This document shows, one piece after another, positions 7,710 to 64,000 of a stretch of 64,000 nucleotides of DNA. Location of the stretch: IMG/VR virus record IMGVR_UViG_3300023174_000065, one strand, 5' to 3'. The translations under genes were made by a program, and so were the position numbers. A model generated the notes under the pieces. That model searched no databases, was not told the origin of the DNA, and was given only the letters and a program-made list of their open reading frames with translations. Origin of the DNA: a virus. Positions within the stretch are counted from its first letter, which is position 1; each line of letters begins with the position of its first letter.

Positions 7710-7714
7710 AACAA

Positions 7715-8101
7715 ATGGCACTATTACCGTTAAACACGTTTAAAACCAAAACATCAATACTAACTACAAATTCATCTACGAGAGTATATACTGCTCCAGT
7801 AGGGGTTACGGCAATTGTGCTTATGGCAAATGCATCTAATATTGATGCTGATAATACACATTTGATTACCTTTTCTCATTATAGAAATTTGCCTGTTTTG
7901 CCAGATACACAAGGAAATGGAGGACAGAGCGGCAACGTAATAACTGAGCAAGTAAAAGATTTTCCAATACCAACTAATAATGCAGCCACATTGTTGTCCG
8001 GTAAGTTAATTGTTGAAAGTTTGGACAGTGTTATTGCATATGCAGATGCACCGGGAGTTATTAAATTAACTCTCAGTGTTCTAGAGACGGCTAACCAGTA
8101 A
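7715..8101 (+). CDS. Conserved small virion-associated protein
   Basis: 128 aa, tightly packed between structural genes; 'VYTAPVGVTAIVLMA...LTLSVLETAN' pattern seen in T4-like phage structural modules. Confidence 0.6.
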   Translation: MALLPLNTFKTKTSILTTNSSTRVYTAPVGVTAIVLMANASNIDADNTHLITFSHYRNLPVLPDTQGNGGQSGNVITEQVKDFPIPTNNAATLLSGKLIVESLDSVIAYADAPGVIKLTLSVLETANQ

Positions 8102-40269: not shown

Positions 40270-42566
<2,297 letters not shown>

Positions 42567-42593
42567 GTTGATATTTATACAAATGCAAACTCG

Positions 42594-43214
42594 TCATGTG
42601 ATTATTTGATTCGCATTGTATGTTCTTGAATATAAATCGACAAGTGAAATATCTTCTTCGACCAGTGTATTTTTATTGCGTATTCTTACAGTAGTGTCTC
42701 CATCTAAACAGTAGAGTAATGATAGTGACATACCTCGGCCAGTCGTTGGCGTAGTAGTTTGCGCTACAATTCTTGAACCGTTGTCGAACTCAATGCTTTG
42801 TTTGTTGTAACTAGTAACGCCTGCTCTAATACTATCTGGACATAGTTCATATGCATATCTAATCCTAGACATGATTTCCATAGCACCGGTGTGTTTATGC
42901 GCTGCTACTAGAATTGTACTATTGTCGATAAACATTGCATACCATAGAAGATATCCGGCAGCAGTGGTGGTCTTGCCTGTTTGTCTAGGCAACATATTTA
43001 CATTGAATCTATTATCGTGATAACTGTCTATTAATCTTTTTTGATATTCAAATGCCGTATAGGACATTTTGCCTTTTGTTGGATGTTGGATATGAAAGTA
43101 ATTATCAAGAAAATAATGAGGATCTTCAAGGCATTTTGCAAATTCTATTAAGTCTTGTTCGGTAAATACCTGTTTTTTGTGCGCTGTTTTAATTAATGAA
43201 TTGTCTGCTGCCAT
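42594..43214 (-). CDS. terL: Terminase large subunit, N-terminal part, fused to split-intein N-fragment
   Basis: 'YQKRLI', Walker A 'PRQTGKTT' and 'GRGMSLSLLY', then 'CLDGDTTV...' and a stop. Confidence 0.92.
   Translation of the reverse strand: MAADNSLIKTAHKKQVFTEQDLIEFAKCLEDPHYFLDNYFHIQHPTKGKMSYTAFEYQKRLIDSYHDNRFNVNMLPRQTGKTTTAAGYLLWYAMFIDNSTILVAAHKHTGAMEIMSRIRYAYELCPDSIRAGVTSYNKQSIEFDNGSRIVAQTTTPTTGRGMSLSLLYCLDGDTTVRIRNKNTLVEEDISLVDLYSRTYNANQIIT
42597..42710 (-). mobile_element. Split intein N-fragment (IntN, 38 aa)
   Basis: Block A CLDGDTTVRIRNKNTLVEEDISLVDLYSRTYNANQIIT*. Confidence 0.9.
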
Positions 43215-50253: not shown

Positions 50254-53200
50254 TTAAGCTAAGGTGTATGTACCAGCTTTGATTGATCCAGTATTGACTA
50301 GACGTAGTGGAATGTAGATGAATTCAACTGCTTTTACAGGTTCAATTGCAATATCCATCCAAAGTTCACTGCGATCAATCCTGGCCGCTGTGTTATTCGA
50401 CTCATCGCATACTACGATAAAGTCATAGAGTGCGCGTTGTCCTACTAGTTCTAACAACAGACTCTGTGCAGCATTCTTGAGTTCGTTGCGAGTGATCTTG
50501 TCGTTTGGTTCAAACAAGAACGGACGTGAAAGTATGTCTAACTGACGACGAAGGTAGCAAACCAATCTTGCAACATTAACTCTATCCAGAGCACTTGCTG
50601 CATTAGCACGAGTATATTGGCCATATGCAACAATTCCTGCTCCAGTCAAAGTAGCAATTGGATTAATGTGTCCATTTTGTGCCATTGCATCCCTGACATT
50701 GGATGATAAGCCTGCTATTTTAAATTCACCAGATGCTCGATCAACATATCCCACGGAACTTACATTGTCAATTGTTCCTCTACGAATTCCAGCAGGAGCA
50801 AACCATTGATAACTCTGTTGGTCACTTAATGCATATGTACGTAGCATCATGTGACTTGGTGGAACAACTATGTAGTTTCCAGCCAAATCTGTTGTGTATC
50901 CACTTGGATAATAAACAGCTAGATTGTCATTGTAACTAACTAGTCCAGTTTCACCGTTATCTAATGCTCCATTAGAATTCATTGCCCACTGCGTTAGTGA
51001 AGTCGCATCTGGAGTCAACCGAAGAGGAGTATCACCGATAACAAATGCAGTCAGCCCTCTATCTGCATTGAGTGAAATCATATTTTGAATTACTTCTGGA
51101 TAACCAGGAGCTGCTATCAAGTTAAAATTCAATGAGTCAGTGTCTCTGATTGCAGTATTGATATCAAGAGTTGCCTTCATTGACTTTACAATGAATGCTC
51201 GCTGCGCATAACGCCCAAATGTGCCTGATCCATCTTCGTTGTTTGGACTTACTGAAACCCAACGATTTGGAGCATAACCAGCCATTGATTCTAATCCTTG
51301 GCGAATATTGGTAGCATTTAAGTTGATGTAATCACGGACATATTGTTTAATGTTATATCCTGAGCGACGAAGGTTCCATAATCTCATACCACGCGGATAT
51401 TCTACTGGATCTGGAGCATCTGGATCAACATAATTGCTGACTAGTAAATCTACGATAGTTGATGCTGCATTTGATGCACCGGCTGTTGCCCAACGTGCGT
51501 CTGCGAAAATCCAACCATCTGGCGATGTTTGGTCAGTTACGTCCTGAATATTCCATTTAGCACCATCGTATACATAGATTTCTTTGCCATACTGCTCAGT
51601 TCCATTCACGAGACTGACCCAGATATCACCAGTGACCAATGGAGTGCCATCACTTTGTGTAGTTGGCTGAGTTGCCGATACTATTGGACCTGTTGGATTT
51701 GTGTTAGGAAAATAATCTTTATATCCCTTCCAATTGGTACCATCATTAATCATGATGTCAACATCTAAAATATTGCCATCATACCAGAGCTGGCCATTAG
51801 TTGGTAATGATGAAATTGGAGCAGGACTTGCTGTAAATTCTAGCGGTTGCCAATTACTTGCCTTAAGACCATATGTATCAAACTCACCAGTTGTATATAA
51901 ATTAGTTGTACTTGTGGTAATTCCAGAAGATGCCAATACTCCACTTGGATCATTGAGAAGTATTTCTCCGCCACTGGTGTGTGAAATGGATATAGTTCCA
52001 TTATTATTGATTGATGCGCTGATATATGGAATATTTGAGCTATTGATGGCTGTAGCAAGAAGTGCAACTGAACCAGTTGTTGTTGTTACAATAGTACCGG
52101 TTGTTGTATATCCTGATGCACCTGGAATAGTCACTGCTGCTGTTATAGTTCCTGTAGTAGAAAATGTTGTGTTAGGACTAGTAATTACAGTTGACCCGGC
52201 CGAAGATCTAGTATATGCCTTAAATACAGCCTTTATATTTGTACCAGTGCCGTGATCATAATTGCTTTCTATATAGAGAGCTCCTGGAGTAATATTTTGA
52301 CCGCCTCCAATTTTATCTAGATTATATGTAGCAGAAGATCCATCAGCGTACACTGGTGCAGATACTGAGTTGAATAGTCCCGAGGTTGCAGACCATTTTT
52401 TGATAATCCAATTCTGACCTAGATTTGGATTGGTTGTCTTTGTATAAACACTGCCAGATGGCTTAGATGTAAAGTTAGGATACTGAGTGTGAGGACCAAC
52501 AAACACGGCTGGAATATCATAAGTTCCTGCTGTAAGTCCAATTGATGCCAAAGCACCTGTTGCACCCGTAAGTTCAATCACGCCATTTGTCACTCTAGAA
52601 TCACCGTATAATGCCAATGCGCCATTGACTATTTTTGCACCAATGTTAGTAGTTACATGCAAATTATTGATTAATGAAGCAATTTCACTTAATGACAATC
52701 CGGTGATATTAATACCGGCTTCGGGAAGGTTATTCATTCTAATTACGCCGGTCCCGTTAAGCGCAGGATTACTAGTCCCCTGAACAGTTGGCCAACTAGT
52801 AATCCATCTTGTACTAGTGAAGGTTGGTGTTGCTACGTTGGTAGAAAAACTTGCCTCATCTTGGGCATCGCCTACTACTACCCAGTTAGCATCACTATTC
52901 TTGTACCAAATATTGACTTCGTCCACTGTTCCGGTAGAAACAACTACTGCATATTGGCCGTTTAAGCCAAAACTAGTCTTTGGTGAACCATCATTGTTGG
53001 CATTTACTGTGTAATTGCTGTCATCGATTATCAATGGTATAATGTTTTTAAATGTACCAGTTGACTTGACCCACTCAAAAATTCCCCACTTGGTATTAAC
53101 AGTATCTAGCCAGTAGCTGCCATCTGCTGGATCGCCAACAGGTGCACTAGTAGATGATTTTAGTGCAGAAAGATCAACATTTGGACGTACAACATATGCA

Positions 53201-53517
53201 CCAGAACTTACTCCGAGGAAGCTGTATGCTGTTTGTAGTCCATATTCATTGAGTTCATATCCATGTAGTGGATTATTTGATGCATCAGTATAAAATAAAG
53301 GAGTGCCGAATGTGTCAGTCAAATCCCTTTGACTAGTTATAAAGTATACTTTGTCAGCATTAGCAGCAGTTGTACCGGCTGCAATATTTCCTGATGGATT
53401 GATTTTATCCTGTGCCGATGCAACTAAGATAAGAGGTACAGTTCCTGGCGCAGATGGAGTATAAAAACTCTCATTGACTACGCTAACTTGTACTCCTGGT
53501 GATTGTAAAGTGGCCAT
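50254..53517 (-). CDS. Contractile tail sheath protein (gp18-like)
   Basis: 'LQSPGVQV', 'QWFAPAGIRRG', 'LDRVNVARL', 'FEPND', 'IEPVKAVEFIYIP'. Confidence 0.92.
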   Translation of the reverse strand: MATLQSPGVQVSVVNESFYTPSAPGTVPLILVASAQDKINPSGNIAAGTTAANADKVYFITSQRDLTDTFGTPLFYTDASNNPLHGYELNEYGLQTAYSFLGVSSGAYVVRPNVDLSALKSSTSAPVGDPADGSYWLDTVNTKWGIFEWVKSTGTFKNIIPLIIDDSNYTVNANNDGSPKTSFGLNGQYAVVVSTGTVDEVNIWYKNSDANWVVVGDAQDEASFSTNVATPTFTSTRWITSWPTVQGTSNPALNGTGVIRMNNLPEAGINITGLSLSEIASLINNLHVTTNIGAKIVNGALALYGDSRVTNGVIELTGATGALASIGLTAGTYDIPAVFVGPHTQYPNFTSKPSGSVYTKTTNPNLGQNWIIKKWSATSGLFNSVSAPVYADGSSATYNLDKIGGGQNITPGALYIESNYDHGTGTNIKAVFKAYTRSSAGSTVITSPNTTFSTTGTITAAVTIPGASGYTTTGTIVTTTTGSVALLATAINSSNIPYISASINNNGTISISHTSGGEILLNDPSGVLASSGITTSTTNLYTTGEFDTYGLKASNWQPLEFTASPAPISSLPTNGQLWYDGNILDVDIMINDGTNWKGYKDYFPNTNPTGPIVSATQPTTQSDGTPLVTGDIWVSLVNGTEQYGKEIYVYDGAKWNIQDVTDQTSPDGWIFADARWATAGASNAASTIVDLLVSNYVDPDAPDPVEYPRGMRLWNLRRSGYNIKQYVRDYINLNATNIRQGLESMAGYAPNRWVSVSPNNEDGSGTFGRYAQRAFIVKSMKATLDINTAIRDTDSLNFNLIAAPGYPEVIQNMISLNADRGLTAFVIGDTPLRLTPDATSLTQWAMNSNGALDNGETGLVSYNDNLAVYYPSGYTTDLAGNYIVVPPSHMMLRTYALSDQQSYQWFAPAGIRRGTIDNVSSVGYVDRASGEFKIAGLSSNVRDAMAQNGHINPIATLTGAGIVAYGQYTRANAASALDRVNVARLVCYLRRQLDILSRPFLFEPNDKITRNELKNAAQSLLLELVGQRALYDFIVVCDESNNTAARIDRSELWMDIAIEPVKAVEFIYIPLRLVNTGSIKAGTYTLA

Positions 53518-53621
53518 TATTGTGTTCTCCCAAACATGGTTGTTGTTTAGTATATTTAGCGGAGACCCTAAAAATTCAACGGTTAAATACTAAGTAAAGC
53601 ACACGAAAAGAGCTTGATAAA

Positions 53622-53960
53622 ATGATTAGACCAATATGTAAACAGTGTAATGCAAGACCTTGTGCCATAAATTATTACAAGGAAGGCAAGCCGTTCTATA
53701 GAAGTAGATGTGATCCCTGTGTCAAGGGAAAAACTCCAGGAATACCACTATGGCGCAAGTCAGGATATAGATTAAAATCTAGATGTGACAGGTGCGGATT
53801 TTCATGTCAACATTCGGCAGTGTTTAGAATATATTACATTGATGGCAAGACTTCTAATTGTCTACATACTAACCTAAAAACAGTATGTGCAAATTGTCAA
53901 ATTCTTCTACACTCTGGTCATGTAAAGTGGGTCAGGGGCGACTTAACACCAGACTTCTGA
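53622..53960 (+). CDS. Zn-binding HNH-like protein (degenerate)
   Basis: CxxC pairs and 'YYIDGKTSNC...NLKTVCANCQ', an HNH-like pattern lacking the catalytic His. Confidence 0.55.
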   Translation: MIRPICKQCNARPCAINYYKEGKPFYRSRCDPCVKGKTPGIPLWRKSGYRLKSRCDRCGFSCQHSAVFRIYYIDGKTSNCLHTNLKTVCANCQILLHSGHVKWVRGDLTPDF

Positions 53961-54573
53961 TTTGTTTATGTAGGTCATCAAACGAGCCATTATTGTTTAG
54001 ATGCACGTCGTATTCAAACCCAACTGAACTGTATTCACTGGCATGAATTCTGAAATCGTTTTCTAGCATACGCTGAAGATATTCTTTACGATACAGATTA
54101 TTTGTGGTATTGAATGTCTCGGCATGTGAAATCCAATCTGGCTCAGTGCCTCTATGAGTTCTAACCGTAATGCCTCCGGCATTTTTAATTGCTTGAAGTT
54201 CATTGGGAAACCGGCAGTCAGTGAGAACAACATCTTCTCTAGAATTCCGAATTTTGTTTTCTACGGATGCTACCCAGATGTCATTATGAAATCCTCGACG
54301 AGCAACCTCAGTTCCCCATTGCTGTAATACCCAGCGCGGTGTTAGATGAGGAATTCCAAGTCTTTCTGCCCACCATGAATCAATTTGTTCACGCCATTCT
54401 CTACTAGCTTTCGTTGATCCTTCGAGTAATTCTCTATCCCAACCAAAAATATCAGAGAGTGCATCCTTTAAAGATGCAGCAAAGCTCATTCTCTTGAATC
54501 CATGAACAGTGCAGAGATAGTCTGCAACTGTATCTTTTCCACTTCCAATCAATCCGGTGATGCCTATAATCAT
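53932..54573 (-). CDS. Deoxynucleoside monophosphate kinase (T4 gp1-like)
   Basis: 'IIGITGLIGSGKDT', 'SFAASLK', 'PRWVLQQWGTE', 'DCRFPNE', 'HASE'. Confidence 0.9.
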   Translation of the reverse strand: MIIGITGLIGSGKDTVADYLCTVHGFKRMSFAASLKDALSDIFGWDRELLEGSTKASREWREQIDSWWAERLGIPHLTPRWVLQQWGTEVARRGFHNDIWVASVENKIRNSREDVVLTDCRFPNELQAIKNAGGITVRTHRGTEPDWISHAETFNTTNNLYRKEYLQRMLENDFRIHASEYSSVGFEYDVHLNNNGSFDDLHKQIRSLVLSRP

Positions 54574-54579
54574 AATTTA

Positions 54580-54608
54580 ATTATAACATAGAAATTATAG
54601 GTTGTCAA
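54580..54608 (-). promoter_or_regulatory. Consensus sigma70 promoter for dNMP kinase (leaderless)
   Basis: TTGACA(54608-54603)-N17-TATAAT(54585-54580), 6 nt before the ATG. Confidence 0.85.
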
Positions 54609-54610
54609 CC

Positions 54611-55369
54611 TTAGCCAAATACAAAGGTCATCGGCGTTTCGCCCGAGCCATAGTTTTGCATATCGAGTTCCAGACGTTCAATTTCGGCAGTACCTTCTTG
54701 TTTAAGTGCATCGCCGTTCAAAGATACTCCACCCTGCGGTCCAGCAATTTGAGAAAACATAGATCTTGCTTGTCCTAATATAATTTTTGCCTGTGCAGTT
54801 GCATAGTCCTTGATCCATAATCCAGCATATGGATCAGCAAGAATGGCAAAATCTGGTTTATAATTATATAGCCATAGCATAACTGTTTCTTCGCCACGTG
54901 GACGTTGCATGATAGTTAATTTTTTAGTGGCAGGATTCCATGTAAACTGAATATAACTACCGAACATTTTACCAACTTGTTTCTGATAACTTGCAAATGC
55001 ATAATATGTAGCAAGTCCGCCCATGTTAGACGAACTCAATAAGTATGTATTAGAGTATGCCAAGTTAAATGGCTCAAATAACGATCCGCCATCACCGCCG
55101 CCTGTCCTAGAACCAATGCTGCGACGAAACACATCTCGTACCTCAATAACTTCTTGACCGAGTGTGTACTCATTGACATCTTGCTCTAATGTTAGAAATC
55201 CAAAACTCTCTTCAACTGAGTTAGAAGATTTTTGACGATACTTTGCAAACGCACGTTCAATTGCGGTGCGATAATGTGATGGATCAAGTTCGATATCTAC
55301 GAGACCATCGCCAAGCATGTTCTTGATATAATCGGTTATTGTTTGTGTTACGTTTTCGGAAGTGCTCAT
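54611..55369 (-). CDS. Neck protein (gp13-like)
   Basis: 'LGDGLVDIELD', 'WIKDYATAQAK..LG', 'GPQGGVSLNG'. Confidence 0.8.
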   Translation of the reverse strand: MSTSENVTQTITDYIKNMLGDGLVDIELDPSHYRTAIERAFAKYRQKSSNSVEESFGFLTLEQDVNEYTLGQEVIEVRDVFRRSIGSRTGGGDGGSLFEPFNLAYSNTYLLSSSNMGGLATYYAFASYQKQVGKMFGSYIQFTWNPATKKLTIMQRPRGEETVMLWLYNYKPDFAILADPYAGLWIKDYATAQAKIILGQARSMFSQIAGPQGGVSLNGDALKQEGTAEIERLELDMQNYGSGETPMTFVFG

Positions 55370-55374
55370 GATAT

Positions 55375-55389
55375 TATTTATTATAAATA
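55375..55389. promoter_or_regulatory. Back-to-back T4-like late promoters
   Basis: TAAATA on - (55380-55375) and TATAAATA on + (55382-55389), each 5 nt from its ATG (55369 and 55395). Confidence 0.75.
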
Positions 55390-55394
55390 GGTAT

Positions 55395-56615
55395 ATGCCA
55401 AGGATCAGTATGTACCGTCCCGAAAAGGGAAATAACTTTAGATACCTAGATAGGATAATTGAGCAACAGTTTCAGATGGGTGGAACTGATGTTTTTGTTC
55501 ACAAGTATCTAGGACCAGCAAATCCTAATAGCGGAGATGCTACTCCAGGAGTGCCAAATCAAACTAACCCCATTGGAGAACTTGGCATTCAAGATATCAT
55601 TCTCATGGAAAATAGAGATCGTCAATACGCACAAGATGTGTATACGATGAGAACAATTTATACAATGCAAGATTTAGATTTCAATCTCAGTCAGTTTGGT
55701 ATATTTCTTAATAATGATAATGTATTCCTGCACTTTCATCTTAGAAATTGTGTTGAAACGCTTTCTAGAAAACTTATGTCAGGTGATGTATTAGAGTTGC
55801 CACATCTCAAAGATGAATATGCACTTGATCAGGCAGCAATTGCGCTCAAAAGATTTTATGTTGTACAAGATGTGGTACGAGCAGCATCGGGATTTTCACA
55901 GACTTGGTATCCTCATTTATTAAGAGTAAAATGTGTGCCGCTAGTGGATAGTCAGGAATACAGTGAAATTCTTAACATGGACACTGGTGCTGGCGACGGT
56001 TCCACTCTTCGTGATCTAATGTCTACATACAGTACTAATATTCAAATTAATAATGCCATACTTGCACAGGCCGAGTCAGATTCGTCACTGAGTGGTTATG
56101 ACACTCATCAATACTATGTTATGTCAAAAAGAGCAGATGGACTGAATAATATTCAAGATACCAGTGACATGGACGCAGACGCCAGTAATGAAAACTTGGC
56201 ACTTAATGCATCAATGATTTTAAAAACTCCTGATGAAGATATGTATGTAGGATATCTAACTGGCAATGGCATACCTCCTAATGGATCTGCCTATACATTC
56301 GGCAATGAGTTTCCTTTAGGAAAATTAGTTGAAGGACAATTTCATCTGCGCACAGATTATTTTCCCAATAGACTGTTCAGATTTAATGGCACTCATTGGG
56401 TAAAATTCAAAGACAGTGTTCGCATGACCATGACAAATAATTATGCACCTGGTGTTGCCAATCAAAATAGCTCGGTTGATACATATACTACCCTAAATAG
56501 ACAGACTCAAAAGACTGGATTTATAAACAACAACAATACTGCGACTATAGCAGGAGAAGTTGTGTCAGAGCGCCAGGCACTTAGTAAAGCATTGAAACCA
56601 CGAGCAGATAATTAA
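55395..56615 (+). CDS. Neck protein (gp14-like)
   Basis: Start MPRISMY; 'LSQFGIF', 'GDVLELPHL'; lies between gp13-like and gp15-like genes. Confidence 0.6.
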   Translation: MPRISMYRPEKGNNFRYLDRIIEQQFQMGGTDVFVHKYLGPANPNSGDATPGVPNQTNPIGELGIQDIILMENRDRQYAQDVYTMRTIYTMQDLDFNLSQFGIFLNNDNVFLHFHLRNCVETLSRKLMSGDVLELPHLKDEYALDQAAIALKRFYVVQDVVRAASGFSQTWYPHLLRVKCVPLVDSQEYSEILNMDTGAGDGSTLRDLMSTYSTNIQINNAILAQAESDSSLSGYDTHQYYVMSKRADGLNNIQDTSDMDADASNENLALNASMILKTPDEDMYVGYLTGNGIPPNGSAYTFGNEFPLGKLVEGQFHLRTDYFPNRLFRFNGTHWVKFKDSVRMTMTNNYAPGVANQNSSVDTYTTLNRQTQKTGFINNNNTATIAGEVVSERQALSKALKPRADN

Positions 56616-58042
56616 TGGAACATTTTTATGACGGTCAGTTAAAACGATATCTGACTCAATTCATGAGGTTGATGAGTAATTTTTCCTATAAAGATGGAAA
56701 AGGTAAACTGGTTCAGGTACCTGTTCGCTTTGGTGATATGAACAGGCAAGTTGCACAAATAGTTAATAAAAACAGTGAGAACATCATACAGAGTGCTCCA
56801 TTCATTGCCTGTTATATTAAAGAGTTGGAATTTGCTCGTGATCGCCTTCAAGATCCCACTTATGTTAGTAAAATCAATATTCGTGAGCGAGCATTTGATA
56901 GTGATGGTCAAGAATACTTGAATACACAAGGTGCAAATTATACCGTAGAGCGAATTATGCCTACTCCATTCAACTTAAAATTAGTGGCAGATATTTGGTG
57001 CACAAACGTTGATCAAAAATTACAACTCATTGAACAGCTTGCGGTTCTATTCAATCCGGCAATTGAAATACAAACAACAAATAACTATCTTGATTGGACC
57101 AGCTTGAGTTATGTTGAACTCACTGGTATTACATATTCTAGTAGACAAATTCCACAGGGCCTAGAGCAGGACATTGATATTGCAACAATGACTTTTCAGG
57201 CACCTATATGGATAACTCCTCCTGCCAAGGTTAAAAAGCTAGGTATTATTACTAAGATAATTACTAGCATTTTTGATGAGGCTCCTGCCACAGCTTTACG
57301 CACGAGTAATAATGGTGATGTGGTAGATTTCTTTGGTGATATTGCTCCACTAACAGTTGAATATACCACTTTAGGCAATCTAGGATTAATGGTAATGGAC
57401 AATACTGCCAAGTTGATTAGGCCATATAATGTGTTCACAGAAAAAAATTCTGAAACTTTTGCAGATATATACACTGACGGCGAAACGGTATCCTGGCACA
57501 CCATTTTAGATCAGTATCCTGGCAAATTCACTGCCAATCTCAGTCAGATCCGTTTACAAAAACCAGATGGAAATGAAATCGTAGGATTTATCTCACTGAG
57601 TTCATTTGATGATTTCTCAATGCAAGTTCGTTGGGACACAGACACCGTTCCCATGAACACATTATTTACAGATGTCAATTCTGTTAGCACACGAGGCACA
57701 GTTGATGCAATTATAGATCCACAGACTTTTAATCCTCGGCCCAGAGATGTCGATGGATCCCTTCAGTGGCCAACACTCGATACCAGGTATCTTTTGCTAG
57801 AAGATGTAGCCGAAGATGCAACTGCATGGAAGAATCAAAACAACAGTTATTTTAGCGGCAAAGCAAATGACATTGTACAATGGGACGGTACTCGGTGGAA
57901 TATTCTATTCAATCATACTACAAATACTGTGACATTTATAACAAACGCACGGACCGGAATTCAGTATAAATGGACAGGCAGTGAATGGCTCAAGAGCTAC
58001 GAAGGCATTTATAATCAAGGTAAATGGCGTCTAGTGTTATGA
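56615..58042 (+). CDS. Tail sheath stabiliser/terminator (gp15-like)
   Basis: 'HFYDGQLKRY...F', 'VPVRFG', 'PTPFNL', 'QKLQLIEQLAVLFNP'. Confidence 0.75.
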   Translation: MEHFYDGQLKRYLTQFMRLMSNFSYKDGKGKLVQVPVRFGDMNRQVAQIVNKNSENIIQSAPFIACYIKELEFARDRLQDPTYVSKINIRERAFDSDGQEYLNTQGANYTVERIMPTPFNLKLVADIWCTNVDQKLQLIEQLAVLFNPAIEIQTTNNYLDWTSLSYVELTGITYSSRQIPQGLEQDIDIATMTFQAPIWITPPAKVKKLGIITKIITSIFDEAPATALRTSNNGDVVDFFGDIAPLTVEYTTLGNLGLMVMDNTAKLIRPYNVFTEKNSETFADIYTDGETVSWHTILDQYPGKFTANLSQIRLQKPDGNEIVGFISLSSFDDFSMQVRWDTDTVPMNTLFTDVNSVSTRGTVDAIIDPQTFNPRPRDVDGSLQWPTLDTRYLLLEDVAEDATAWKNQNNSYFSGKANDIVQWDGTRWNILFNHTTNTVTFITNARTGIQYKWTGSEWLKSYEGIYNQGKWRLVL

Positions 58043-58467
58043 AAAATATAACATGTGCTGGCGGTATTTTCCTTGCGCGTGATACCAAAAGATTTCTTTT
58101 CCTGATGAGAACACATCAAAAATCTTTGGGAACATGGGGAATAGCAGGCGGTAAAGTTGAGCCAGAAGACAATACTCTGTATCAAGCATTACTCAGAGAA
58201 ATCAATGAAGAATTGGGATGTAGTCCTCCAATTGAAAAAACAATACCTATTGAATTATACGAGAGTGCTGACAATCAATTCTATTACAATACATATGTTT
58301 TAATAACTCCCACTGAGTTTATTCCTCGATTAAATGAAGAACACAGTGGATACTCATGGGTAGATATAGATTGCTGGCCTAAACCGCTGCATCAGGGAGT
58401 CAAGACTACTCTCATGAATCGAATAACTCGCGCAAAAATTGATACTATTATTCGATTGATATCCTAA
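58039..58467 (+). CDS. Nudix hydrolase
   Basis: Nudix box 'GGKVEPEDNTLYQALLREINEELG'. Confidence 0.88.
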   Translation: MKNITCAGGIFLARDTKRFLFLMRTHQKSLGTWGIAGGKVEPEDNTLYQALLREINEELGCSPPIEKTIPIELYESADNQFYYNTYVLITPTEFIPRLNEEHSGYSWVDIDCWPKPLHQGVKTTLMNRITRAKIDTIIRLIS

Positions 58468-59319
58468 TTACATTACAAATATTTTGCCTACAGAATTTCC
58501 CAATACTGAATCAAACATATACTTCATATCATTTGCCAATGTGGAAGTAGCCTCTCTTCTGGAGTCTTCGTCTCCGTCTTCGGGATTAATTTTTAAATAA
58601 TTGGTAGATTTTCCCCAGGCCTTTCTGCCATATCCTAGATGATCAGGCAAAGGACCTAGTTTTATTTCTCCGGTTCCTAGATACTGAGCAAATAACTCAT
58701 ACAAAAATTCATATGGCCGCCTAATCTGATTCGTGCGACTACTGCGTTGAGTTCCAATGGCATTGAACAAGGCATTATATTCCTGAGTCATTGACCAATT
58801 CACCGATGATTTACCATCGTTTCTTTCAGATTTGCCATAATAATCACTGAGCATATCATTTACAGATGAGAAGAAATGCTTTTCAGCCTCGCCCCATAGG
58901 CTCCATCGACCTCGACCAGCACTTTGAATAGCATGAGCAAATCTATGTGCCATGATCCACGGAGTCATCATTACTTTTGCATCACCACTATTGCCAACAA
59001 ATACCACCGTAATTGTGTCATCGCTGTCTTTTAATATTGTCTCTGCAACTTCCCCAAACATCACCTTCAATCGTTCAGCAGACACCGCACCATATTCACT
59101 ATATTTGCCTGTTCCAGGTATATTACTAAAAAACAACCTAAAGTCATAGGGAGTCCGCTCAAAAAACTTAGCGGCCTTTAATTGATTTTTTGGATGTGGA
59201 ACCAAACGCCTATCAACACCACGAAATGGCCCAGGTTTATCAAAATCACCAATAGGTGTAAATTGGTGTAGTGGCATTTCATCAAGAGTTTGATGTTCAA
59301 GGAGTTCCTGAATTCGCAT
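58468..59319 (-). CDS. Hypothetical protein, probable internal head protein
   Basis: N-terminal 'MRIQELLE'; 'WIMAHRFAH' motif. Confidence 0.55.
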   Translation of the reverse strand: MRIQELLEHQTLDEMPLHQFTPIGDFDKPGPFRGVDRRLVPHPKNQLKAAKFFERTPYDFRLFFSNIPGTGKYSEYGAVSAERLKVMFGEVAETILKDSDDTITVVFVGNSGDAKVMMTPWIMAHRFAHAIQSAGRGRWSLWGEAEKHFFSSVNDMLSDYYGKSERNDGKSSVNWSMTQEYNALFNAIGTQRSSRTNQIRRPYEFLYELFAQYLGTGEIKLGPLPDHLGYGRKAWGKSTNYLKINPEDGDEDSRREATSTLANDMKYMFDSVLGNSVGKIFVM

Positions 59320-59320
59320 A

Positions 59321-61150
59321 TTACAGTCCTAATTTTTGTTTTATGATAGGCTCTAGTTCATCGGGAACATACCGTAATGCACTGCCGTCATTAGTAACTG
59401 CCGCTAGACACATCTTCTCAGATCGAAGTTCATCGGGAACATACCGTAATGCACTGCCGTCATTAGTAACTGCCGCTAGACACATCCGTTCAGTTCTGAG
59501 TTTTTGTGGAACATGCCCCAATGCCCAGCCGTTCTGAGTAACTGCCGCTAGACACATCTTCTCAGATCGAAGTTCATCGGGAACATACCGTAATGCACTG
59601 CCGTCATTAGTAACTGCCGCTAGACACATCTTCTCAGATCGAAGTTCATTGGGAACATGCCTTAATACATAGCCGCTCTGAGTAACTGCCGCTAGACACA
59701 TCCGTTCAGTTCTGAGTTCTTGTGGAACATGCTCCAATGCCCAGCCGTAATTAGTAACTGCCGCTAGACACATCCGTTCAGTTCTGAGTTTTTGTGGAAC
59801 ATGCGCCAATGCACCGCCGTCATTAGTAACTGCCGCTAGACACATCCGTTCAGTTCTGAGTTTTTGTGGAACATGCCTCAATGCCCAGCCGTTCTGAGTA
59901 ACTGCCGCTAGACACATCCGTTCAGTTCTGAGTTCTTGTGGAACATACCGTAATGCATCGCTGTTCTGAGTAACTGCCAATTCACATAACTCAGAATAGC
60001 CTTTTGTATTAGGAGATATGCCACCAATTGTAGACTCATCCCCAACCTTAATGATTTTCTTGAGTAATTCAAAATTACGCGATATAGAAGCAGGAGCACC
60101 TAATAGCTTCTCTCCGGTCCCGGTCATTCCTGGTTTCATAAAATTAAGGAGTTTCTTCTCAAAATTCTCCATATCATGTGGTGCATATACTACTAAATCT
60201 GGATCCTCATCCACTGCTCGACTCCAGTCCTTTGTGGTATTCGTTCGGCCAAAAAGTAACTGCAATCCTGGTCTATGTTGTATGGCTATTTCTTGTAATC
60301 TAGGATTATTTTTAATTGACGCAGGCGCCTTTAAAATTTCAATGGGAGTGAATTTAATCTGTGTTTCTAACAATATAGGTTTCTTGTGGAGGAAATACTC
60401 TAGTTGTTGCTCCGACAAATCAAACATTGAAAAGTTCATATGAGGAGCATAACCGCCGCTACTGATTCCCTTGATCATGTTAAGTTCTAATAATTTAACA
60501 ATATATGGATGATATTTCTCAGCAGGCTTTTGATTATTCTTGGCCTTCATTTCTCCCAGTGAGCCATCGGGTTCAAGAATAAAAGTCAACAGTACTTGAT
60601 TATTGCCGTTCCTAAATGACAAAATTCGTTGATCTGGGTTGGTTTGACCAACCACATTTCCGCAGTGCTTTCCACTTCTGCCTTCATCACTGCAATAAGC
60701 TCTGTTAACAAACCACCACGCATATCCGCCACCAAACTCCAGTAACCGATAATCGCCTTCTTGAGGTTCTACACCTCGTTCTGTTTCGTTCTTCTTTTTC
60801 CAGTCATCCTCGAATTTAGCAAGTGCGTCAATGACATCACTGACTGTATTCTTGCCAAATCGATAGTTTTCAATGGGAGCATAATTGTAGCCATAGAAGT
60901 GAGACACGACAGTGCCCAACTGCTGTATTCCCTGCCAACGATAGACCCCTAATAGTTCTGGACCCAATTTATCTTCCAACTCAGCACGAAGTAATCGCAG
61001 ATACCACGTGACTCGATCTGGATTTTTTAATGCCTGTTTAGCCCACTGAACATGTCCCTTGACATACTCTGCCTGTTCAGGAAATTGTTTAATGATAGCA
61101 TCAACAAGAGGATCATATACTGCTTCTACTAGGAGTTCACGAATTTTCAT
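59321..61150 (-). CDS. PcfJ-like domain plus DUF4116-type repeat protein
   Basis: Start MKIRELLVE (ATG 61150, TAAATA 5 nt upstream); 'EGRSGKHCG...ILSFR...EMKAKNNQKP' PcfJ-like region; C-terminal 24-aa repeats. Confidence 0.65.
   Translation of the reverse strand: MKIRELLVEAVYDPLVDAIIKQFPEQAEYVKGHVQWAKQALKNPDRVTWYLRLLRAELEDKLGPELLGVYRWQGIQQLGTVVSHFYGYNYAPIENYRFGKNTVSDVIDALAKFEDDWKKKNETERGVEPQEGDYRLLEFGGGYAWWFVNRAYCSDEGRSGKHCGNVVGQTNPDQRILSFRNGNNQVLLTFILEPDGSLGEMKAKNNQKPAEKYHPYIVKLLELNMIKGISSGGYAPHMNFSMFDLSEQQLEYFLHKKPILLETQIKFTPIEILKAPASIKNNPRLQEIAIQHRPGLQLLFGRTNTTKDWSRAVDEDPDLVVYAPHDMENFEKKLLNFMKPGMTGTGEKLLGAPASISRNFELLKKIIKVGDESTIGGISPNTKGYSELCELAVTQNSDALRYVPQELRTERMCLAAVTQNGWALRHVPQKLRTERMCLAAVTNDGGALAHVPQKLRTERMCLAAVTNYGWALEHVPQELRTERMCLAAVTQSGYVLRHVPNELRSEKMCLAAVTNDGSALRYVPDELRSEKMCLAAVTQNGWALGHVPQKLRTERMCLAAVTNDGSALRYVPDELRSEKMCLAAVTNDGSALRYVPDELEPIIKQKLGL
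59355..59978 (-). repeat. 72-nt in-frame tandem repeat, 8 full units plus 1 partial
   Basis: Unit VTxxxxxLxxVPxxLRxExMCLAA; the core 'taactgccgctagacacatc' is invariant. Confidence 0.95.
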
Positions 61151-61364
61151 GGAAATATTTATCTCGCTACCAGAAACCTCCTGCGCGTCTCGCGCAGCGC
61201 GAGCTCCAGCCATATTTTTCAATCATTAAGTGAGTATATAATAGTTGTCAGAACCATGCTCCTATGATAAACTAAGTGAAGATCAATACACCTGGACAAA
61301 ATGAAGATAAAGTCGGTAATGAAATATCACTTCGAGTAATTGCCACAGTATAGGAGATAATAGT

Positions 61365-61586
61365 ATGGCTACTTGTTTTTATTGCTGTGAAGAGCACCAA
61401 CTAGGAGCAAGAGTATGTCCACACTGTAGATCAAGTTTTTACTCGTCTCCTCAATATTCATCCAATGATTATACTTCCAGTGAAGGAGCAGGAGTATTCT
61501 CCACTATTGCAGTTCTCCTCTTCTTTGGATGGCTATATTACCAGATTGGTAAATCTATAGTAGTGTATGTATTATCATGCATATAG
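61365..61586 (+). CDS. Small Zn-ribbon membrane protein
   Basis: AGGAG RBS; CxxC...CPHC plus a C-terminal hydrophobic helix. Confidence 0.65.
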   Translation: MATCFYCCEEHQLGARVCPHCRSSFYSSPQYSSNDYTSSEGAGVFSTIAVLLFFGWLYYQIGKSIVVYVLSCI

Positions 61587-61813
61587 AGTTTGAAACTGCG
61601 CACTCGACGCCCGCCCGCGCTAGTCCCTATCTCCTCTCGAATGTGAAATCAGCGATTGAATCGTGGTGTGACAGTAGAGAACTCTCGTACGATATAGTTG
61701 ACCGAGCTACCGGATTTTTAGCAGTGACAGTCTGTGTATACTTCTATGATCCTAGAGACTTGACCTTGTTTGTTCTGGGATTCCACAAATATCCGTTTTG
61801 TGTATGCCTATAA
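61577..61813 (+). CDS. Hypothetical protein
   Basis: 78 aa, overlaps its neighbours; resembles the next ORF ('W...' and 'F.....TLF.L'). Confidence 0.55.
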   Translation: MHIEFETAHSTPARASPYLLSNVKSAIESWCDSRELSYDIVDRATGFLAVTVCVYFYDPRDLTLFVLGFHKYPFCVCL

Positions 61814-62049
61814 AATTTAGATTATCTCTGCCCGATGACAATATTAACTCCTCTATGCGGCATCTACGAGCGGGGCTGTTTAGACTATATTTTAAAAGTT
61901 GGGCAACAAAGAATAACATCAGTGACTATAGATTGATAAACCATGAAGGCAATGTAAAAGTAATTTTTAAACATGCCAGTGAGTATACTATATTTGCACT
62001 AACATGGAACAACAGTAGATATACAGATTACTGCATAGTTAAATCATAG
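61804..62049 (+). CDS. Hypothetical protein
   Basis: Start MPIKF; C-terminal 'F...EYTIFALTW'. Confidence 0.55.
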   Translation: MPIKFRLSLPDDNINSSMRHLRAGLFRLYFKSWATKNNISDYRLINHEGNVKVIFKHASEYTIFALTWNNSRYTDYCIVKS

Positions 62050-62381
62050 TTAAATCATAGTTGGAATAGTGCGCGGGGCCACGGTTTTCGTATATCCACA
62101 GTAAAAAATTTGTGGCGGAAAATTTTTAAAACCGTTTTTAGATTGAGTCAGGCAGCTCCATGCAACCTTATATCCATAGTGAAAGTTAGTGGTGGAAATT
62201 CTAGTTGGCCAGTGAAAAAATTACTCTCCAAAAATTTGGAGGTGGAAATTCTAGTTGGTTGACCAACTGGTCACATGTTGGTTCAATAATTTGCAAGCAA
62301 TGAGTAGAATAATTTTTTACTTAAGCTTTACTAAGCACCCGGCCGTCTTTACTCCACTTTTACTATCCCGGTACTATCCCG
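62034..62381. repeat. Non-coding junction with short direct repeats
   Basis: CATAGTTAAAT tandem (62034-62062); GGTGGAAATTCTAGTTGG at 62191-62208 and 62241-62258; TATATCCA(C/T)AGT at 62091 and 62169; TACTATCCCG twice (62361-62381). Confidence 0.8.
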
Positions 62382-62422
62382 ATGCTTAAGAGCAAGTAAA
62401 TGATTACTTGCAAGCAAGTAAA

Positions 62423-62456
62423 TGTGCTGCGCGCTCTACTATAGAACACGCAGCAC
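62423..62456 (-). terminator. Stem-loop after the 62465-62986 gene
   Basis: TGTGCTGCG...CGCAGCACA inverted repeat immediately downstream of the stop. Confidence 0.5.
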
Positions 62457-62464
62457 ACAAGTTA

Positions 62465-62986
62465 TTATCTAGTAATCGTTTGCTTGTTTGCAGTAATCGA
62501 CACGACATTTTCAAGCTTGATTACACGCACATGAATATTGTGTGTGACATCATTTGTTTTGTTGTAGACTTCGCTCGAAGTATTGAGCAGCTTTTCACGC
62601 TCACTATTCGTAAGCAATTCAGCAACGTCATCGCGAGTAGCAGCAACGTCATCAATAGTGAAAGTAGAGCGAGCATTGTTGAAAATGCAATACAAGTATT
62701 CAGTTGCATTAGTCTTGTGTTCGACAAGAGAAAAGCAATCAGTATGCTTGAAATATGTATCGCTGACAACGAAATTATCAGTGTCTGCGCTGCGCTCGAC
62801 TTGACGACGATACACGTCGAAGTCACGAGTATTGTTGAACAATTGAACATTAGCAACAGTGTGCTTGCGAACATTGCGATGCTTGTTTGCTGCGCTAGTC
62901 TTTACTTCAGTATCAGTAACGACACTAGCAAAAGTAGTCCCGGTCGTCGAAGCGAGCAGGGCGCGAATATCAGAAGAAGCGATCAT
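62465..62986 (-). CDS. Hypothetical (early) protein, cassette 1
   Basis: 173 aa, directly downstream of a repeat promoter/leader; 1 Gly, no Pro, no Trp. Confidence 0.7.
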   Translation of the reverse strand: MIASSDIRALLASTTGTTFASVVTDTEVKTSAANKHRNVRKHTVANVQLFNNTRDFDVYRRQVERSADTDNFVVSDTYFKHTDCFSLVEHKTNATEYLYCIFNNARSTFTIDDVAATRDDVAELLTNSEREKLLNTSSEVYNKTNDVTHNIHVRVIKLENVVSITANKQTITR

Positions 62987-62994
62987 AAAAGTAG

Positions 62995-63241
62995 CTTTCG
63001 TTTGATCAGCAAGACACTATTGCGTTGCTGACAAGAGAATCTCTAGACGATCATCGAATGAGAGTCAAGAGAAAAAATGCACGATCATCGAAAAAATATT
63101 AGAGCGATTCTAGAGCGATTTGAGAGAGATTGCGAGCAAGAGCGAGTGAGACTAGCTAGAGCGCAATTGTCGCGCTCCATCGGCTTTCTAGAGCATTTGA
63201 GAGCAAGAGACGCGATTACTCGCGTCTCTTGCGTCGATCAT
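62995..63241 (-). repeat. Intergenic cassette repeat, copy 1 (hairpin, promoter, leader stem-loop)
   Basis: Near-identical to 63430-63663. Contains a 13-bp stem GCAAGAGACGCGA/TCGCGTCTCTTGC (63203-63232), TTGACT-N17-TAGAGA on the - strand, and a TCAGCAA/TTGCTGA stem. Confidence 0.9.
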
Positions 63242-63244
63242 CGC

Positions 63245-63421
63245 TCAGTCGTGATGCACAACCCGCTGAGCCAGGAATTCTGCGAACGACATTCGTTCGA
63301 TTTCAATATTTTGACAATTGTAACGCTCTTTGAAAGTGACGAGCAACTCAAGCAATTTCAGCTCATCTTTGCACACATGAAAAATCTCGAAGTCCATGTT
63401 CGAATCAGTGACGATATACAT
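63245..63421 (-). CDS. Hypothetical (early) protein, cassette 2 (58 aa, missing from the ORF track)
   Basis: Manual translation MYIVTDSNMDFEIFHVCKDELKLLELLVTFKERYNCQNIEIERMSFAEFLAQRVVHHD*; exactly fills the space between two repeats; no Gly, Pro or Trp. Confidence 0.7.
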   Translation of the reverse strand: MYIVTDSNMDFEIFHVCKDELKLLELLVTFKERYNCQNIEIERMSFAEFLAQRVVHHD

Positions 63422-63429
63422 ATCAGTGA

Positions 63430-63663
63430 CTTTCGTTTATCAGCAAGACACTATTGCGTTGCTGACAAGAGAATCTCTAGACGATCATCGAATGAGAGTC
63501 AAGAGAAAAAATGCGTTTTTCAGAAAAAAAATTAGAGCGATTTGAGAGAGATTGCGAGCAAGAGCGAGTGAGACTAGCTAGAGCGCTGTTGTCGCGCTGT
63601 ATCGGCTTCCTAGAGCATTTGAGAGCAAGAGACGCGATTGCTCGCGTCTCTTGCGTCGATCAT
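63430..63663 (-). repeat. Intergenic cassette repeat, copy 2
   Basis: Same elements as copy 1; 13-bp stem at 63625-63654. Confidence 0.9.
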
Positions 63664-63666
63664 TTG

Positions 63667-63954
63667 CTACAAGACATAGAAATATGTCTTGTCTTCGCCT
63701 TTTGGATTTTCTATCTCTTCAACACGATGCAAGATATTTTCTTGCATATTGTCGCAAACGTCATTGCAGAATGCTTCAACATCTTCATCAACGTAATAAT
63801 CATCATTCACGCACTTCATGAAACGACTAATCAATTTGCACGATTGAAATAGAGCATTCATTTCTGCATGAGTGAATTGATCAAAAACGCTATGAGTAGC
63901 TTGTTCTTCAGTATATTCTTCAGAAAAGACGTAGTTTTGCTTATAGCTTGTCAT
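63667..63954 (-). CDS. Hypothetical acidic (early) protein, cassette 3
   Basis: Probable start MTSYKQ (ATG 63954); 1 Gly, 1 Pro, no Trp. Confidence 0.7.
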   Translation of the reverse strand: MTSYKQNYVFSEEYTEEQATHSVFDQFTHAEMNALFQSCKLISRFMKCVNDDYYVDEDVEAFCNDVCDNMQENILHRVEEIENPKGEDKTYFYVL

Positions 63955-63976
63955 ATCTAGTCTCACTCGATTGTCT

Positions 63977-64000
63977 GCAAGACACTATTGCGTTGCTGAC
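63977..64000 (-). repeat. Intergenic cassette repeat, copy 3 (truncated by the window end)
   Basis: GCAAGACACTATTGCGTTGCTGAC is identical to copies 1 and 2. Confidence 0.85.

Follow-up and report, generated by a model that had tools for sequence, protein, structure and literature searches.

Why should a phage genome lose nearly all GG and CC dinucleotides from both strands of one sharply bounded region? The question is raised by one end of a 64,000-nt stretch of virus record IMGVR_UViG_3300023174_000065 (hereafter the window), in which an earlier note, made from the letters alone, had described a GG/CC "desert" running from position 62381 to the end. Its counts were borne out after recalculation: a total of 16 sites (7 GG plus 9 CC, against an estimate of about 16) are present in 62381-64000, and the segment free of both steps, previously given as 558 nt, covers 560 nt (62380-62939), where about 47 sites are expected on local composition. 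The G+C content, put at 38-40%, is 42%, about 10 points below that of the upstream gene array. Base shuffles of 62381-64000 (n = 2000) gave 142.1 ± 9.8 GG/CC with a minimum of 107, which excludes composition as the cause of the depletion. The rho values within the desert are 0.09 for GG and 0.14 for CC, against 1.10 and 0.93 in the remaining window, where the longest GG/CC-free gap is 137 nt. On the two strands together, 229 consecutive Gs are found without a following G, the top value after neighbour shuffling being 59 (n = 10). GA/TC is not depleted (rho 1.32), and avoidance of dipyrimidines sensitive to ultraviolet light was rejected, because TT is not depleted.

The desert is not a chimeric join, because independent assemblies carry the identical junction. 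Among the loci and assemblies of related phages (designated by L-codes; long genomes carry G-codes), L397 from ENA is 99.98% identical to window positions 52464-64000 (11.5 kb), L398 is 98.9% identical to 59681-64000 (4.3 kb), and L274 is 91% identical to 61131-63531, across the desert edge. This sharp inner edge is marked by the tandem 10-mer TACTATCCCG at 62361-62381, a candidate for the end of a terminal repeat, and the same edge is found in L274. As judged from L397 (8853-10606), the whole desert is about 1.75 kb in length, with 18 sites against 152 expected, and its right end lies about 135 nt beyond the window, at approximately position 64135.

Three minus-strand genes are located in the desert, orfA (62465-62986, 173 aa), orfB (63245-63421, 58 aa) and orfC (63667-63954, 95 aa), each downstream of a repeated promoter/leader unit. 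Together they encode 2 Gly, 1 Pro and no Trp, as had been counted before. With the OrfA protein held fixed, the gene contains 5 GG/CC against 26.8 ± 4.5 expected under a synonymous-codon null, and seven of the eight Gly, Pro or Trp columns conserved in close orthologues have been replaced, including a Gly conserved in 88-100% of the orthologues and a Pro conserved in 80-85%. In an orfA tree the window protein is placed among normal orthologues, with a second GG-free branch elsewhere; this is a quick, composition-biased tree, which forces at least two origins per desert class and nothing beyond that. An amino-acid-level cause was dropped, because the purging extends to intergenic DNA and synonymous sites. 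Selection thus acts on the DNA itself, on both strands, and overrides protein conservation, in support of what the earlier note had proposed.

Deserts at the edge of the same kind of array were found in about 15 related phage types, and the banned step varies among them, being in all cases G plus a purine. GG-only deserts are carried by the window, by L274 and by a separate lineage, L351, with 2327 nt without CC, almost no GG, and normal GA and TC. In G001/L015 mainly GA is banned, G001 having 600 nt without coding-strand TC, while both GA and GG are banned in L002, L007, L011, L013, L017, L018 and L020-L023 (rho of GA, 0.02-0.19). Some deserts are confined to the template strand, as in G017 (743 nt without template-strand GA/GG) and L275. 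Where a desert is partial, clearance of the template strand comes first or is complete (TC 0 of 130 and CC 3 of 89 expected in L021; 0 of 55 and 0 of 42 in L022), and the GA/GG remaining on the coding strand are mostly at obligatory Asp, Glu and Gly codons. The promoters differ as well: the -35 box in GA+GG deserts is TTGCAA instead of TTGACA (six TTGCAA within the G003 desert, with TTGACA solely outside; 13 TTGCAA within that of L021), and the GG-only window retains TTGACT. The GA+GG relatives encode proteins of 115-188 aa free of Asp, Glu, Gly, Pro and Trp (L020:9947-10513, L022:9992-10510, L011:1860-2246, L013:11128-11502 and L020:9197-9544). The desert is, however, a lineage-variable and not a universal trait, because the close relatives L004-L006 and L353 have none around their orfA orthologue; the absence of depletion from orthologous regions, which the earlier note would have counted against its view, is thus found in part. 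Its gene content also varies, since in L011 and L013 it covers the gene after orfA and orfA lies outside.

The desert is probably a region from which sites of the phage's own deazaguanine modification are excluded, for the sake of the host RNA polymerase or of escape from modification-dependent defence. After replication, a DpdA3 system would modify guanines of the phage DNA into a 7-deazaguanine derivative, here at G followed by G, so that the motif in this lineage would be GG, and a neighbouring glycosyltransferase might make the derivative bulky. Since the enzyme would need just a two-letter context, motif-free writing would be the only route to an unmodified stretch. The three cassettes, which border the early array, would probably be read first, by untouched host machinery, and their products could then enable use of the modified remainder of the genome. 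As to the cost that is avoided, our tentative choice is that host RNA polymerase would transcribe the modified DNA poorly; attack by a nuclease or glycosylase directed against modified DNA is somewhat doubtful. The promoter swap and the priority of the template strand lean toward the polymerase; clearance of both strands fits defence too, and these data do not separate the two. Bulky groups at position 7 of 7-deazaguanine block bacterial RNA polymerase in vitro (PMC4838386), and G-modified phages are attacked by END nucleases, PA5oct included (PMC12191111), and by Dag glycosylases (10.1101/2025.10.29.685425).

The genes for such a pathway were found in the clade. The window phage, uncultured, from a lake and with a genome of at least 334 kb, is a jumbo myophage of the PA5oct/RaK2/Atu_ph07 type, with core neck, sheath, terminase, DnaB and RecA genes in common (DnaB 52%, RecA 62% and a neck protein match of 34% against PA5oct), and no DNA match to cultured phages was found. 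Its nearest long genomes, G001 and G017 (RecA 88%, DnaB 73-81%), encode a protein of 542 aa with 44% identity to PA5oct QCG76197, listed as DpdA3 by Cui et al. This protein contains a TGT-type DSGGxQ motif (invariant D103-S-G-G-x-Q) and falls in a TGT-like cluster of the Atlas (0.94, with a Pfam share of 17%), and the Pfam TGT model itself gave no match to it; by sequence it is identified as a DpdA3 with the TGT catalytic motif. G001 and G017 also carry DpdL, FolE, QueD, QueE and a GT-B-like glycosyltransferase gene, the last adjoining dpdL/dpdA3 (L069:3132-4229 for G001) with homologues in PA5oct, Phosso, G016, G017 and G023, and this neighbourhood hints at a glycosylated deazaguanine not previously described. 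The combination of dpdA with folE/queD/queE was detected in G001, G002, G016, G017, G023, PA5oct and Phosso, and the guanine pathway in every near-complete relative except Atu_ph07. None of these genes is within the 64-kb window; we infer that the source genome carries the DpdA3/que cluster, with dpdA3 expected by synteny about 70 kb to the left. The banned G-plus-purine steps equal the motifs mapped for DpdA in other phages, in support of modification: GA and GGC for CAjan (PMC7544227) and GA for iggy (PMC10484667).

The cultured relative PA5oct agrees with this explanation. Its DNA was concluded from the restriction pattern to contain modified G in GA and/or GG (PMC12191111, the accessible text, in which cutting by the other five enzymes is implied and not stated); ApaLI, the sole enzyme not fitting GA/GG, has just two sites in the genome. 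Both-strand patches free of GA and GG were identified in PA5oct (MK797984.1, 267341-267557, 239311-239459, 264998-265138, 277085-277227, 27594-27698 and 21066-21169), among them runs of 56, 56, 56 and 51 consecutive Gs against a shuffle maximum of 20; the patch at 267341-267557 consists of two TTGCAA/TATAAT promoters in tandem ahead of the tRNA cluster. Atu_ph07, without dpdA3, has no such patch (17 against 17 after shuffling). Of the three causes offered by the earlier note, the freeing of genes transcribed by host polymerase from a phage modification at GG or CC is now the best supported, because the step banned in relatives is GA, GG or both, the DpdA3 cluster occurs in the clade and PA5oct is reported to be modified at GA/GG; escape from a defence acting on the first-injected DNA survives as a sub-case of it, because modification-dependent defences exist, and avoidance of a CRISPR motif fits the GG-only case without positive evidence.

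Several observations weigh against the modification explanation. Characterised DpdA3 enzymes replace all G regardless of context, according to Cui et al. (bioRxiv 10.1101/2023.04.13.536721), so that a variant DpdA3 or the glycosyltransferase would have to supply the context. The DpdA3 proteins of G001/G017 share about 80% identity, and a switch of motif from GA to GG is harder to accept for that reason. The DpdA3 family is also present in G002, Phosso and Vibrio 2.275.O, which show no clear desert, and L004, the most syntenic relative, has none around orfA. No dpdA3 homologue was seen on the phage's 334,494- or 156,448-bp contigs among the approximately 200 matches listed out of 7,000-8,000, and no strong both-strand desert fragment extends to the dpd locus; the 23 dpdA3 contigs without orfA and the 13 orfA pieces without dpdA3 are fragments and hence uninformative. 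Plain 7-deazaguanine, the predicted product of DpdL, is well transcribed, and the block in vitro is at initiation and not at elongation (PMC4838386). The upstream array retains GG/CC-rich promoters, which the host must read as well, and Atu_ph07 is one negative-control genome only.

The desert adjoins the edge of a GC-rich array of early type (50-58% GC), in which small genes of distinct composition each have a sigma70-type promoter with TTGACA (L274, L397); comparable small-gene arrays occupy 18-22 kb in G001 and G002. PA5oct has early genes in a terminal repeat of 39 kb, where they are transcribed by host RNA polymerase (PMC7318152), and we infer that the array here is a similar terminal repeat with the desert as its first-entering end. 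The array with its promoters thus lends substance to the earlier proposal of an early or first-expressed region, the terminal position and the early expression of the desert genes being presumptive. The array also resembles T5/BF23, in which injection is in two steps and pre-early genes are in long terminal repeats (PMC10644984 and 10.64898/2026.04.02.716235), in that small single-promoter genes lie at a probable long terminal repeat, as far as sequence alone can tell. A GG/CC-dense non-coding tract was noted upstream of each GG-only desert (L397:8560-8860, just beyond the right end of the window; L274:3095-3335; L351:8100-8426), at a density of 24-29 sites per 100 nt, compared with 14 for the array; such a bordering tract would be heavily modified and is possibly a boundary or injection-stop signal.

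Avoidance of a protospacer adjacent motif (PAM), or of another host reader of unmodified DNA, is unlikely as an alternative, although it survives best. By dropping CC/GG (the PAM of type I-F, or that of NGG Cas9) the first-entering segment would escape targeting while making an inhibitor, and the GA+GG lineages would face YC-type PAMs. Both-strand GG/CC, as in the window and L351, is indeed the I-F PAM, CC is depleted in I-F-targeted P. aeruginosa phages (PMC12174588), and a host-side cause would account for the difference among close relatives (no desert in L004, GG in the window, GA in G001). However, what is depleted in those phages is shifted statistically across the genome and not banned locally (PMC12174588), and the CC step of this PAM does not match what is banned in the GA and GA+GG relatives. 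Avoidance of a PAM also leaves unexplained the template-strand-only deserts (G017, L275), the promoter swap, the mainly-GA type and the tRNA-promoter patches of PA5oct. The gene inside the desert varies (orfA being outside in L011 and L013), and no match of OrfA to solved anti-CRISPR structures was found, a weak test that does not exclude an anti-CRISPR, nor did OrfA to OrfC show any family match to anti-CRISPR proteins, which likewise does not exclude one.

Still less likely is modification of cytosine in a pyrimidine-C context (CC here, TC plus CC elsewhere), of which the desert would be kept free. Because CC/TC is the complement of GG/GA, composition does not separate cytosine from guanine modification. 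The carbamoyltransferase family is linked to cytosine modification, and a member was found near the deserts in L007, L012 and L013 and also in G017, but no match to it was detected in G001, PA5oct or the window, all of which show the bias (a dedicated search for C5-methyltransferases was not made), and it is the guanine pathway that all near-complete relatives except Atu_ph07 possess.

Avoidance of Rho at the RNA level is very unlikely. The primary site of Rho binds YC dinucleotides (PMC5314796), coding-strand TC/CC is purged first in partial deserts, and OrfA might be a Rof-like Rho inhibitor, YaeO/Rof being its second-best structural match (Z 4.9, root-mean-square deviation (rmsd) 2.5, 68 aligned). 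This Z value is, however, within the background of that search. With GG alone banned, and on both strands, the window allows DNA modification to be told apart from rut avoidance, and it disfavours Rho: the message is TC-rich, with 68 avoidable TC against 46 expected (75 against 69 in L351), and lacks GG, a step that Rho does not read. G001 retains CC (28 against 43), and the loss of Asp, Glu and Gly codons in relatives is not attributable to Rho. An artefact or neutral process (chimera, composition, repeats, amino-acid bias or local mutation pressure) is hardly credible, even though the desert contains internal repeats and has a lower GC content than the array, and the orfA family is somewhat low in Gly, Pro and Trp overall, because three assemblies span the junction, the base and synonymous-codon nulls are rejected, conserved Gly113 and Pro127 are replaced and independent lineages show deserts; chimera and composition are refuted, and a targeted mutational process is a formal possibility.

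No description of such deserts was found in the literature searched, most subscription papers being outside its coverage. Motif avoidance itself is known; what was not found there is a sharp-edged ban on a two-letter step to which both proteins and promoters have been adapted and which coincides with the modification motif of the clade. Restriction-site avoidance in T5/BF23 concerns host sites of 4-6 bp, in contrast to the two-letter step banned and the proteins rewritten here. Type I-F PAM depletion (PMC12174588) likewise affects CC/GG, but is statistical and genome-level, whereas the desert is near-total, sharply bounded and variable among GG, GA and GA+GG. The phage DpdA systems (CAjan, iggy, PA5oct and DpdA3/DpdL) concern the same G-plus-purine steps and the same gene families as in the nearest long relatives; these papers, in their accessible parts, describe genome-wide modification and neither a motif-free region nor a GG-only motif. 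CAjan contains a single GA/GG-free patch of 60 nt (NC_028776.1, 53678-53737), unlike the 1.75-kb desert, whose presumed modification genes are outside the window. Similar short runs were noted in Phosso (PV764938.1, 22373-22426) and L353 (10441-10507); the three comprise 30, 26 and 34 Gs, respectively, against shuffle maxima of 16-20, and lie at a gene start in CAjan and apparently in the others. END nucleases with the anti-END1 of PA5oct (PMC12191111) and Dag (10.1101/2025.10.29.685425) supply a cost of modified G and a reason for an early inhibitor; the known escape is by an inhibitor or by loss of dpdA, from which a motif-free zone differs.

As a generalization, with a chance that we put close to even, jumbo phages modifying G in a two-letter context may encode, by sequence only, an unmodified start-up cassette whose products then open up or protect the modified genome, and the step that is banned would reveal the motif. 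If so, the modification context of uncultured phages could be read from genome sequence (GG, GA or GA+GG), a GG-only enzyme not yet described would be implied, and hypermodified phages would have a second strategy beside inhibitors, that of making chosen genes unmodifiable, the cassette being made legible to the host by changes in its promoters and proteins, the latter built from as few as 15 kinds of residue in relatives. The cassettes would then point to new counter-defence or polymerase-adapting proteins, and PA5oct on P. aeruginosa PAO1 would offer a cultured model in which host RNA polymerase on hypermodified DNA and the cost of modification are testable. Whatever the cause, natural proteins that lack Gly, Pro, Trp, Asp or Glu while their orthologues are normal represent DNA-level selection over protein conservation.

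The products of the desert genes gave nothing significant against Pfam, PHROGs and NCBIfam. OrfA is from a family common among phages, which comprises 136 clusters at 90% and, by profile search, 305 at 50%; no function was assigned by family search, and no match was found among cultured phages. Its structure is predicted with confidence (pLDDT 95); by Foldseek, no match was obtained in the PDB and four uncharacterised phage proteins in BFVD. The best structural match of the model is the WYL domain of PafBC (Z 5.0, rmsd 2.6, 74 aligned), and many Sm-like matches are at Z 3.5-4.9, so that the model may resemble a small Sm/WYL-like barrel, at a background level of Z 5 or less. OrfB, without Gly, Pro or Trp, and the acidic OrfC, with 1 Gly and 1 Pro, have no assigned function; orfC probably starts at ATG 63954, as in the gene call of L397, and from GTG 63966 would encode 99 aa.

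The promoter/leader repeat before orfA (63002-63080, minus strand) consists of a TTGACT box, a hairpin and a leader ending in GAAAG, with GA kept and GG/CC absent, its function being putative; the copy before orfB (63436-63514, minus) is 99% identical, and a third copy before orfC (63967-64000, minus) is cut by the window end and continues in L397. A spacer repeat follows orfB (63111-63241, with a perfect 13-bp hairpin at 63203-63232), and repeat analysis located its second copy after orfC (63533-63663). Just past the orfA stop is a 16-bp GG/CC-free hairpin (62423-62457, minus), presumably a terminator. A search of viral contigs for the repeat pattern of the desert gave no match, and a consensus promoter scan gave no excess.

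Two genes beside the L351 desert were considered as DpdA3 and rejected by comparison; a DUF5591 domain above the cut-off is carried by one, which encodes a 303-aa protein (L351:14826-15737) 4 kb from the GG-only desert. The array promoters in L274:1-2250 consist of TTGACA, 16 nt and an extended -10 that lacks its last T, and in some an inverted repeat surrounds the -10; we take them to resemble the alphaproteobacterial type, which may hint at the host. The large terminase gene of the window (40270-43214) is split in two around a 311-aa open reading frame, both halves matching one gene in relatives. At 59321-61222 a 633-aa protein with DUF4116-type tandem repeats is encoded, and L274 is without most of this gene, its start being fused to the next gene.

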